A DNA stretch of 6,545 bases from the IMG/VR virus record IMGVR_UViG_2585427789_000011; one strand, 5' to 3'. Of this stretch, positions 4,885 to 5,790 are shown piece by piece. This DNA is from a virus. Taxonomy: Duplodnaviria; Heunggongvirae; Uroviricota; Caudoviricetes. The position numbers were made by a program, and so were the translations under genes. The notes under the pieces are model-generated. The model was not told the origin of the DNA and searched no databases. It worked only from the letters and a program-made list of their open reading frames with translations. The stretch's first letter is position 1. Each line of letters opens with the position of its first letter.

Positions 4885-5088
4885 TTACGGTGCTGTTTTA
4901 AGTCCTGCCGGGATTTCGTTATTATCCATGTGAATAACTTTATCGACCGGATAACAGTTACCGGGAATTTTCTGTTCCGCTGCGGCAACCATGCATTCTT
5001 TCATTGAGCCGTATACGCCAGTAACCATGTCAACCGGTTCACCGGAAACAAGAAAAACCGTCAGAACAAGTGCAAATGTAGTATTCAT
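4885..5088 (-). CDS. ydfD: YdfD-like small membrane protein (prophage lysis-type protein), 67 aa
   Basis: Translation MNTTFALVLTVFLVSGEPVDMVTGVYGSMKECMVAAAEQKIPGNCYPVDKVIHMDNNEIPAGLKTAP has an N-terminal hydrophobic segment. Start ATG 5088-5086 overlaps the dicB TGA stop (ATGA), with AAGGA 8 nt upstream. Identity by position immediately downstream of dicB and recalled Qin gene order. Confidence 0.65.
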   Translation of the reverse strand: MNTTFALVLTVFLVSGEPVDMVTGVYGSMKECMVAAAEQKIPGNCYPVDKVIHMDNNEIPAGLKTAP

Positions 5089-5273
5089 TGCCAGCATCCT
5101 TTTTGCATCAGGCGTAAACGGGCCAGCATTGAAACAATGCATATTTTATTTAATAGCTCCCGTTCTTGTTTTCTCTTGTTAATGGCATCTTCAGTAAATA
5201 CTGGGTTACTGATAGTGACACCAATTTCAAAACAACCTTCAGACGTATTAACGTTTGGTAATAACGTTTCCAT
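5085..5273 (-). CDS. dicB: Cell-division inhibitor DicB (activates MinC-dependent inhibition of FtsZ), 62 aa
   Basis: From the ATG at 5273: METLLPNVNTSEGCFEIGVTISNPVFTEDAINKRKQERELLNKICIVSMLARLRLMQKGCWQ, near-identical to recalled K-12 DicB (MKTLLPNVNTSEGCFEIGV...). GAGGA SD at 5281-5285, 7 nt upstream. The track's longer ORF (to 5345) is an in-frame upstream extension without an RBS. Confidence 0.85.
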   Translation of the reverse strand: METLLPNVNTSEGCFEIGVTISNPVFTEDAINKRKQERELLNKICIVSMLARLRLMQKGCWQ

Positions 5274-5290
5274 TATCGCGTCCTCAACAA

Positions 5291-5446
5291 TGAATTTTGT
5301 GATGCGGCGCCTGGTGCCTCCAGGTGACGTTAACCAGTAAACCATTAACGCCGGATTGTTAGTTGATGTCTGTTACGCAAGTAAAAGACCGCTTGTTTTA
5401 ACTGTTCCGCGTGCGCTGAGCCGCATTCACCGCATCACAAAATTCA
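5291..5446 (-). promoter_or_regulatory. 17-bp perfect long-range inverted repeat in the dicF-dicB spacer; candidate RNase III processing duplex or translational control structure in the dicB 5' UTR
   Basis: Plus 5291-5307 (TGAATTTTGTGATGCGG) is the exact reverse complement of plus 5430-5446 (CCGCATCACAAAATTCA). One arm abuts the DicF terminator, the other lies 6 nt upstream of the dicB SD. A 17-mer repeat is not expected by chance in 6.5 kb. Confidence 0.45.
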
Positions 5447-5450
5447 CTTT

Positions 5451-5493
5451 AAAAGGGGCGGGTATCACGGGAAAAACAAAACGAATACCCGCC
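5451..5493 (-). terminator. Intrinsic terminator forming the DicF 3' end
   Basis: 9-bp stem GGCGGGTAT (5457-5465) / ATACCCGCC (5485-5493) with a 19-nt loop, followed on the minus strand by CC-UUUU. Confidence 0.55.
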
Positions 5494-5509
5494 AAAAGGT
5501 AATCAACAT
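5451..5509 (-). ncRNA. dicF: DicF-like small regulatory RNA (Hfq-dependent inhibitor of ftsZ and other targets in K-12), variant sequence
   Basis: Minus-strand sequence CAUGUUGAUUACCUUUUGGCGGGUAUUCGUUUUGUUUUUCCCGUGAUACCCGCCCCUUUU lies about 180 nt upstream of dicB, matching the recalled K-12 dicF-dicB spacing of about 185 nt. It shares the UUUGGCGG...GUUUU...CCGUGA...GCCGCCC-UUUU pattern with recalled K-12 DicF. The 5' end is set by analogy, not determined. Confidence 0.6.
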
Positions 5510-5790
5510 GGGTTGTTGTAGCGGAGTTGTCACTCAGGCGTATGGTCAACCTGACAACCCGGTGTCCTCAACGGGGAAGGAATAACCCCGCCATACTTAC
5601 CGCCGCGCCATTTCGCGGAGTGCCACAACCGGAAGCGCACGGTCGACGAAAATTTAACGACAGGCTATCTATGAACCAGCAACCTCGCCGTGCGCTTTCG
5701 CGTTATGCTCTGACTTTTCAGAGAAATATCCTTTCAGTAAACTGTCAGTGCCGGATGTTCACCCGTGGAGAACTCCTTAATTACCAACCC
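5509..5790. other. G+C-rich, hairpin-dense non-coding segment (candidate structured RNA or regulatory/recombination region); strand unknown
   Basis: About 60% G+C by hand count over 5521-5640, against AT-rich flanks. Perfect stems at 5526-5532/5552-5558 (7 bp), 5572-5576/5586-5590 (5 bp), 5603-5607/5614-5618 (5 bp) and 5633-5642/5688-5697 (10 bp, 45-nt spacer). No minus-strand ORF longer than about 15 codons; the only plus-strand ORF is Arg-rich with rare Arg codons. Confidence 0.4.
5715..5743 (+). promoter_or_regulatory. Weak candidate sigma70 promoter for the 77-aa gene
   Basis: TTTTCA (5715-5720), 17-bp spacer, TAAACT (5738-5743); 4/6 match to each consensus hexamer. Flanked by short repeats CTGAC/GTCAG and CTTTTCAG/CTTTCAG. 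By-eye call only. Confidence 0.2.

Follow-up and report, generated by a model that had tools for sequence, protein, structure and literature searches.

A perfect 17-nt inverted repeat between a terminator-ended small RNA and dicB, in the early-left operon of a lambdoid prophage, forms a genuine and selected RNA helix on the minus-strand transcript. We consider it quite likely that this helix closes a conserved RNA module and is cut by RNase III in those transcripts that read through the terminator, which would mature the upstream small RNA and detach dicB. RNase III dependence and the approximate position of the cut would be as in the homologous operon of Escherichia coli K-12, from whose literature they are carried over. 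The processing site has already been reported for K-12 and is therefore not new.

The window, that is, the whole stretch of DNA that was analysed, comprises 6,545 nt of a virus of the Caudoviricetes (IMG/VR record IMGVR_UViG_2585427789_000011). On its minus strand, which is the sense strand of dicB, lies the early-left operon of a lambdoid prophage. An E. coli record of 100% identity (NZ_CP068155.1) is annotated with repressor/Cro-like genes, ydfA, ydfB, ydfC, two hypothetical genes, dicB, a DUF1482 gene, an exonuclease and an integrase, and this annotation, together with the alignment to the K-12 Qin prophage, gives the layout of a Qin/Rac-type early-left (dicB/kil) operon. Upstream of the small-RNA slot, the segment 5530-5790 (minus strand) is near-identical to K-12 over ~250 nt. 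A 29-nt segment present near the 5' end of the K-12 untranslated region is absent from the window.

The inverted repeat and its maintenance as an RNA helix

A sequence-only reading of this DNA had claimed two exactly reverse-complementary 17-bp segments 122 nt apart, and the inverted-repeat search confirmed them at 100% identity (Table 1). They are the longest perfect inverted repeat of the window. In 100 dinucleotide-preserving shuffles searched with loops of 3-300 nt, the maximum length of a perfect inverted repeat was 9-14 nt and never reached 17 nt, and the analytic chance expectation for one of 17 nt is ~1e-4. Folding of the 5270-5510 minus-strand transcript, which that reading had proposed as a check, recovered the helix and extended it. 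In both the MFE and the centroid folds it consists of 21 contiguous pairs (P1), in which the 17 Watson-Crick pairs of the arms are joined by one A-U pair (A5448-U5289), one G-C pair (G5428-C5309) and two G·U pairs (G5447·U5290 and U5429·G5308). The z score relative to shuffles was -5.4 for this fold and -6.4 for the fold of 5282-5454. P1 thereby provides the ~20 bp or more, or two turns, of largely uninterrupted double-stranded RNA that characterize an E. coli RNase III site.

The 5' arm begins 10 nt past the stem of a terminator-like hairpin and the 3' arm stops 5 nt ahead of the dicB Shine-Dalgarno sequence, the ATG being at 5271-5273. The arms thus adjoin the two elements between which they had been placed, but the RNA that ends in the hairpin is not canonical DicF, as described below.

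Table 1. Features of the dicB upstream region, and related arm pairs and module copies. Positions are those of the window.
Feature	Position	Strand	Basis
Upstream hairpin, homologue of the K-12 190-nt-species RNase III hairpin	5630..5700 (arms 5630-5642 / 5688-5700)	-	Inverted-repeat search, K-12 alignment
Terminator-like hairpin (stem 5457-5493) and U tract (5451-5454)	5451..5493	-	Fold, K-12 alignment
P1 5' strand, 21 bp including two G·U	5428..5448	-	MFE folds, covariation, K-12 arithmetic
17-nt duplex, 5' arm, UGAAUUUUGUGAUGCGG (transcript)	5430..5446	-	Inverted-repeat search and sequence
P2 hairpin, GCGGC-UCAGC-GC-A-CGC	5409..5424	-	Alignment; invariant but in retrieval pattern
Hairpin of variable middle core segment	5368..5389	-	Fold, K-12 alignment
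P3 hairpin, 9 bp	5326..5352	-	Fold, covariation in 7/9 pairs
P4 hairpin, CCUGG-AGGCA-CCAGG	5310..5324	-	Fold, Rfam alignment, covariation
P1 3' strand	5289..5309	-	MFE folds, covariation
17-nt duplex, 3' arm, CCGCAUCACAAAAUUCA	5291..5307	-	Inverted-repeat search and sequence
dicB Shine-Dalgarno, GAGGA	5281..5285	-	Sequence; predicted weak pairing with U tract
dicB coding sequence, 62 aa, METLLPNVNTSEG...	5085..5273	-	ORF/annotation
Arm pairs from different lineages (example), CAGACCUUGCAAUGCAGUG / CACUGCAUUGCAAGGUCUG			
Arm pairs from different lineages (example), CAGGUUUUAAGGUGUGGUG / CACCACACCUUAAAGCCUG			
Arm pairs from different lineages (example), AGACUUUGCGGUGCAGUG / CACUGCACCGCAAAGUCU			
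Copies in Candidatus Arsenophonus triatominarum: L127, L134, L144, L149, L158, L162, L171, L179, L187, L192, L198, L201			
Copies in Candidatus Phlomobacter: L129, L148, L184, L199			

Homologues came from three motif scans, two over viral contigs and the third over species-representative genomes, which together gave several hundred loci. Chance matches, of which the genome scan had many in high-GC genomes, were excluded by also requiring the 3' motif. The alignment set, for which both the 5' and the 3' core motifs were required, consists of 65 distinct elements with their flanks from E. coli, Shigella, E. albertii, E. ruysiae, Citrobacter, Lelliottia, Klebsiella, Raoultella and Pantoea, and so spans six or more enterobacterial genera. 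RNAalifold recovered the closing helix from these sequences. Complementarity, the conservation of which the sequence-only reading had wanted examined, was kept: 14 of the 18 P1 pairs counted show changes on both sides, and 93.4% of P1 cells are paired. For the whole structure the paired fraction was 93.3%, falling to 29-45% when the 3' partner was slid by 1-3 columns, and none of 500 shuffles reached the observed values. Compensatory changes were also found in P3, in 7 of its 9 pairs. The invariance of P2 and P4 is uninformative since both motifs served as retrieval patterns; in Arsenophonus copies, which were retrieved by the 5' motif alone, the P4 stem is CCAAG/CUUGG.

The arm sequences themselves are wholly different between lineages, yet they remain complementary over 18-22 bp, and a helix of this length is kept by no fewer than six unrelated arm sequences, found in E. 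coli, Citrobacter, Lelliottia, Klebsiella, Raoultella and Buttiauxella. Between the window and K-12, P1 differs at three places (C-G to U·G, G-C to G·U and U·G to U-A), of which the first two lie inside the 17-nt arms and the third in the inner extension, and all of them pair. In a subset of related elements (the L244 type, Pantoea and Arsenophonus) P1 is only 6-10 bp, so the core can do without the long helix.

Across the alignment, cells with G·U (~102) far outnumber those with A·C (~16), which places the structure on the sense RNA rather than in a DNA palindrome or an antisense RNA. A chance repeat, or a palindrome acting as a protein-binding or recombination site, would account for the symmetry of a perfect inverted repeat on both strands and for nothing else. 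Both are exceedingly improbable, being already refuted by the shuffles, together with the low chance expectation, and by the compensatory changes; the frequent G·U pairs of the sense strand would moreover turn into A·C mismatches if the structure were one of DNA or of antisense RNA.

The enclosed module, its relatives and the upstream small RNA

The 122 nt between the arms had been taken for a spacer. This label does not hold: the segment is a conserved multi-hairpin module. Its core is predicted to fold into a multi-branch structure made up of P2, a hairpin in the variable middle segment, P3 and P4, the last abutting the 3' strand of P1. The sequence of the variable segment is unrelated in K-12. 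P4 is the most conserved motif of the family, and its middle pair covaries between U-A and G-C. The family-wide motif UCACC-N-GGAGGCACC-N-GGC (5310-5326, minus strand) holds a perfect Shine-Dalgarno-like GGAGG.

At gathering thresholds Rfam gave no match in the window. The permissive scan gave one meaningful match, to STnc100 (RF02076), at 29.9 bits (E 1.7e-4), and the K-12 element matched the same model at 34.4 bits (E 1.2e-5), neither reaching the STnc100 gathering score of 47 bits. The outer helix of the model aligns to the 17-nt duplex. In the reciprocal direction, a covariance model of the dicB type matched STnc100-type elements at 31-65 bits, at loci that had been retrieved via the shared 3' motif. 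Both types have the 5' GGUGAAU and the 3' UCACCNGGAGGCACCNGGC motifs in the same register. STnc100, PasD and EcOnc27 have been described in published work as prophage-encoded, Hfq-associated small RNAs located near Q, stx and lysis genes, and no link between them and the dicF-dicB region emerged from our literature search.

Like STnc100, PasD and EcOnc27/sRNA103, the element described here has a closing helix, a 5' GGUGAAU hairpin, P3 and a UCACCNGGAGGCACCNGGC hairpin immediately next to the 3' strand of that helix. It differs from STnc100, PasD and EcOnc27 in that its Rfam match is below the gathering score, in its P2, which is of the GC type rather than CCCCC/GGGG, and in its location in an early-left operon. 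The closing helix has 21 bp in the element, as against 4-9 bp in the STnc100-like relatives with a CCCCC-type P2 (n=69). A terminator-like hairpin follows ~26 nt downstream in 51 of these 69 copies versus 0 of 56 copies with a long P1, and no promoter-like site was found in the window between 5050 and 5850, so that, by these two scans, the element is without a promoter or terminator of its own, unlike those small RNAs. On the sequence comparisons, a distant relationship of the module to the STnc100/PasD phage small RNA family is suggestive rather than demonstrated.

Several features of the relatives were recorded alongside. The most conserved motif of STnc100-type copies also contains three CACC repeats, potential alternative partners for the conserved GGUG at the core's 5' end, which hints at alternative conformers or at a binding site. 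STnc100-like elements occur in head-to-tail arrays with a period of ~253 nt and a terminator-like hairpin after each unit (L023 457-981, L042 1810-2334, L095 4462-5000 and L113), as well as in pairs 484 nt apart (L021, L051 and L082). The genome of the insect symbiont Candidatus Arsenophonus triatominarum holds at least a dozen near-identical module copies. There and in Phlomobacter, a closing helix of ~10 bp and the covarying CCAAG/CUUGG form of P4 are followed by a Shine-Dalgarno sequence and an ORF beginning MRLDNPR. At L244 (8022-8230) and in ~14 similar viral contigs, a short-stem module (9 bp) lies upstream of a DicF-like small RNA, an order reversed with respect to the dicB operon, with the C4 antisense RNA and isrK nearby.

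The module precedes by 15-50 nt the start codons of dicB, of kilR (Rac-type), of several small predicted membrane proteins and of other small ORFs. DicF or DicF-like terminators come before it in E. coli, and in some loci (L013) it stands directly after a stop codon, with no small RNA. In Rac-type loci (L008, L047, L062, L117, L146, L280 and others) the long-stem module is preceded by a DicF-like terminator and followed directly by kilR, which encodes another FtsZ-directed division inhibitor. The 3' arm of the kilR loci contains a one-base bulge (CCGCAUCAACAAAGUUCA), and one Rac-type kilR locus also carries RalA.

The RNA upstream of the duplex had been named DicF, which proved to be incorrect for this allele. 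It occupies the position of DicF, between ydfC and dicB, and ends in a hairpin and UUUU, but the Rfam DicF model (RF00039, gathering score 48 bits) gave no match in the window even with E values of up to 10 allowed, as against 76.7 bits for the K-12 DicF control. Between flanks that are ~95-100% identical to K-12, the 53-nt DicF body has been replaced, including both published seed regions, and the terminator-like hairpin alone is kept (5450-5512, minus strand). This divergent allele is present, unannotated, in 149 of 5,426 complete E. coli genomes. The hairpin is followed by CCUUUU. A simple terminator scan did not call it because its loop is 12 nt and its U tract has only 4 nt; we describe it as terminator-like because of how it folds and because it is homologous to the DicF terminator.

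Probable RNase III processing and its predicted consequences

In K-12, the 3' end of a 72-nt DicF species is made by RNase III and termination gives a 53-nt form, as cited in two secondary sources (Faubladier 1990, in PMC5069750 and PMC9438474, for the former; both sources for the latter). DicF is annotated at 2383-2435 of the K-12 locus (L002), so the 72-nt species ends at 2454, and the K-12 5' arm spans 2445-2461. The cut would therefore fall in the middle of the helix, with a tolerance of ~9 nt on each side, a placement that is arithmetic from the sizes quoted in PMC5069750 and PMC9438474. Gordon et al. 2017 (PMC5371410, Table S1) list an RNase III-dependent site, 'intergenic dicF-dicB', at NC_000913.3 1649470 and flag it as known. 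The rnc mutant has 26 reads there, against 0 in each wild-type replicate, in RNA-seq data of low coverage and coarse resolution in which sites <400 bp apart were merged. This position corresponds to 2471 of the K-12 locus and lies within the element, 17 nt 3' of the inferred cut. A review also places the dicA-dicF-dicB intergenic regions among RNase III substrates.

The processing site that the sequence-only reading proposed is thus most likely right, judging by a helix that is maintained and long enough, the K-12 72-nt end within the 5' arm and the rnc-dependent RNA-seq site. By homology to that end, the 5' strand of the present allele would be cut after 5437, and the 3' strand, if the usual 2-nt 3' overhang is assumed, between 5299 and 5298. 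The other RNase III cut of the K-12 transcript, at the 5' end of a 190-nt species, has been confirmed by primer extension and is better documented; it maps to a separate upstream hairpin, not to P1. We considered whether the 190-nt 5' cut and the 72-nt 3' cut could be made in the two strands of one helix. This single-helix reading was rejected because the sequences surrounding K-12 2246 and 2454 lack complementarity to each other and because the 5' cut sits in a hairpin of its own.

We propose the following sequence of events. P1 would close the multi-hairpin module between the terminator-ended small RNA and the dicB ribosome-binding site, and, for it to form, transcription would have to continue past the terminator. 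Its approximately two turns of near-perfect double-stranded RNA would be offered to RNase III, which would cut both strands. The upstream small RNA would thereby acquire a longer 3' end, the counterpart of the 72-nt DicF species of K-12, and the dicB cistron would be detached with a leader of ~25 nt, from which the predicted effect is to free the Shine-Dalgarno sequence from weak pairing with the terminator U tract. Maturation of the small RNA 3' end cannot be the sole role, because some loci with a long P1, such as L013, have no small RNA or terminator before the module.

In the dicB loci, past a one-base bulge beyond P1, the terminator U tract together with AA is predicted to pair weakly with UUGAGGA, which contains the Shine-Dalgarno sequence. 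The predicted unpaired probability of the latter is 0.21-0.32 in the read-through RNA versus 0.80 in the predicted 3' cleavage product. The dicB AUG was in a small local hairpin in every construct folded. This A/U-rich hairpin, AUAAUGG-AAAC-GUUAUUA (5253-5276, minus strand), is predicted to keep the start codon paired, the unpaired probability being 0.00-0.06 with or without the long helix. The modelled change in Shine-Dalgarno accessibility is modest and is compatible with the earlier idea that the helix couples processing to dicB translation. An in-frame upstream ATG inside P3 extends the dicB ORF to 86 aa (5085-5345, minus strand), which fits an old report, as cited in PMC5069750, of DicB translation initiating at an internal, in-phase start.

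The same accessibility values could be read in another way, with the helix and the weak Shine-Dalgarno extension serving in cis as a brake on the translation of a toxic gene (dicB, kilR or the small membrane proteins) and RNase III being incidental, or acting by binding as at lambda cIII. The position of the module shortly upstream of these start codons, the capacity of the U tract and AA to pair with UUGAGGA, and the predicted gain in accessibility once the 5' strand is removed would all suit a brake. The extension, however, consists of seven weak pairs, three of them G·U, with no testable covariation, and in other genera P1 stops 3-30 nt short of the Shine-Dalgarno sequence and does not cover it, which makes a brake as the main role rather unlikely. 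The module might instead shield a long untranslated stretch of the operon from Rho-dependent termination or RNase E, the helix serving to keep the RNA folded. From the last upstream ORF to dicB this stretch measures ~570 nt from the ydfC stop in K-12 and somewhat less in the window; ~250 nt of it are nearly identical between the two, it is strongly structured (z -5.4), and Rho usually enters RNA that is untranslated and unstructured. Shielding leaves unexplained both the clustering of helix lengths at 18-22 bp and the rnc-dependent ends in K-12, and we regard it as quite improbable.

The resemblance to STnc100 raises the further alternative that P1 is chiefly a clamp on a functional RNA and that RNase III excises a trans-acting small RNA of ~130 nt, a relative of STnc100, PasD and EcOnc27. 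RNase III releases rRNA precursors by cutting both strands of the stem that closes them, and the Rfam match with the same outer helix in both the window and K-12, the reciprocal match of the dicB-type model and the common register of the GGUGAAU and UCACCNGGAGGCACCNGGC motifs point the same way. Against this, both Rfam scores are under the gathering score and the loci of the reciprocal test were retrieved via the shared 3' motif. Coverage of the K-12 core, at 0 reads in the wild type versus 26 in the rnc mutant, is the opposite of what a stable product would give, at a very low level of expression, and the literature search met no report of an RNA from the dicF-dicB spacer. An excised small RNA of this kind is unlikely. 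A wider version of the idea, to which we assign a similarly low probability, is that the element is a branch of the STnc100/PasD family that was built into early-left operons as the leader of host-killing genes, P1 having been lengthened from ~8 to ~21 bp so that RNase III would excise the core, freeing a second regulatory RNA and allowing the toxic gene to be translated from read-through transcripts only. We favour cleavage of the closing helix in read-through transcripts, with maturation of the upstream small RNA and detachment of dicB, as the probable role of the duplex.

Significance and relation to known systems

The prophage products DicB, DicF and KilR block division of the host cell and alter phage sensitivity, and their expression needs tight limits. 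The mapping result of 1990 is now tied to a concrete structure with covariation support. Across Enterobacterales, a long-stem module stands before several unrelated toxic small genes and may be related to stand-alone phage small RNAs. Its recurrent placement suggests, from sequence comparison, a reusable post-transcriptional gate, which would be of importance only if the gate function is true.

The closest known system is the RNase III site of the K-12 Qin dicBF operon. It has the homologous position in the operon, near-identical arms with three P1 differences that all preserve pairing, and the same flanks, a terminator upstream and the dicB Shine-Dalgarno sequence downstream. It differs in that the prophage of the window has another small RNA in the DicF slot and another middle segment in the core, and cleavage is reported for the K-12 homologue. 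RNase III sites are also established in the lambda N leader, lambda cIII and lambda sib, in the intercistronic signals of the T7 R1.1 type and in the stems of 16S and 23S rRNA. As in the N leader, at cIII (where binding activates), in sib retroregulation and at the R1.1-type signals, a stem of about two turns lies in a polycistronic phage transcript. As we propose here by analogy, a cut by the host RNase III would, as at those phage sites, separate the units and alter the fate of the downstream message. As in the stems that bracket 16S and 23S rRNA, the two strands are far apart and enclose folded RNA. These comparisons with the lambda, T7 and rRNA stems are drawn from established knowledge and claim no sequence relationship; in the present case, what the helix encloses is a 122-nt multi-hairpin core.
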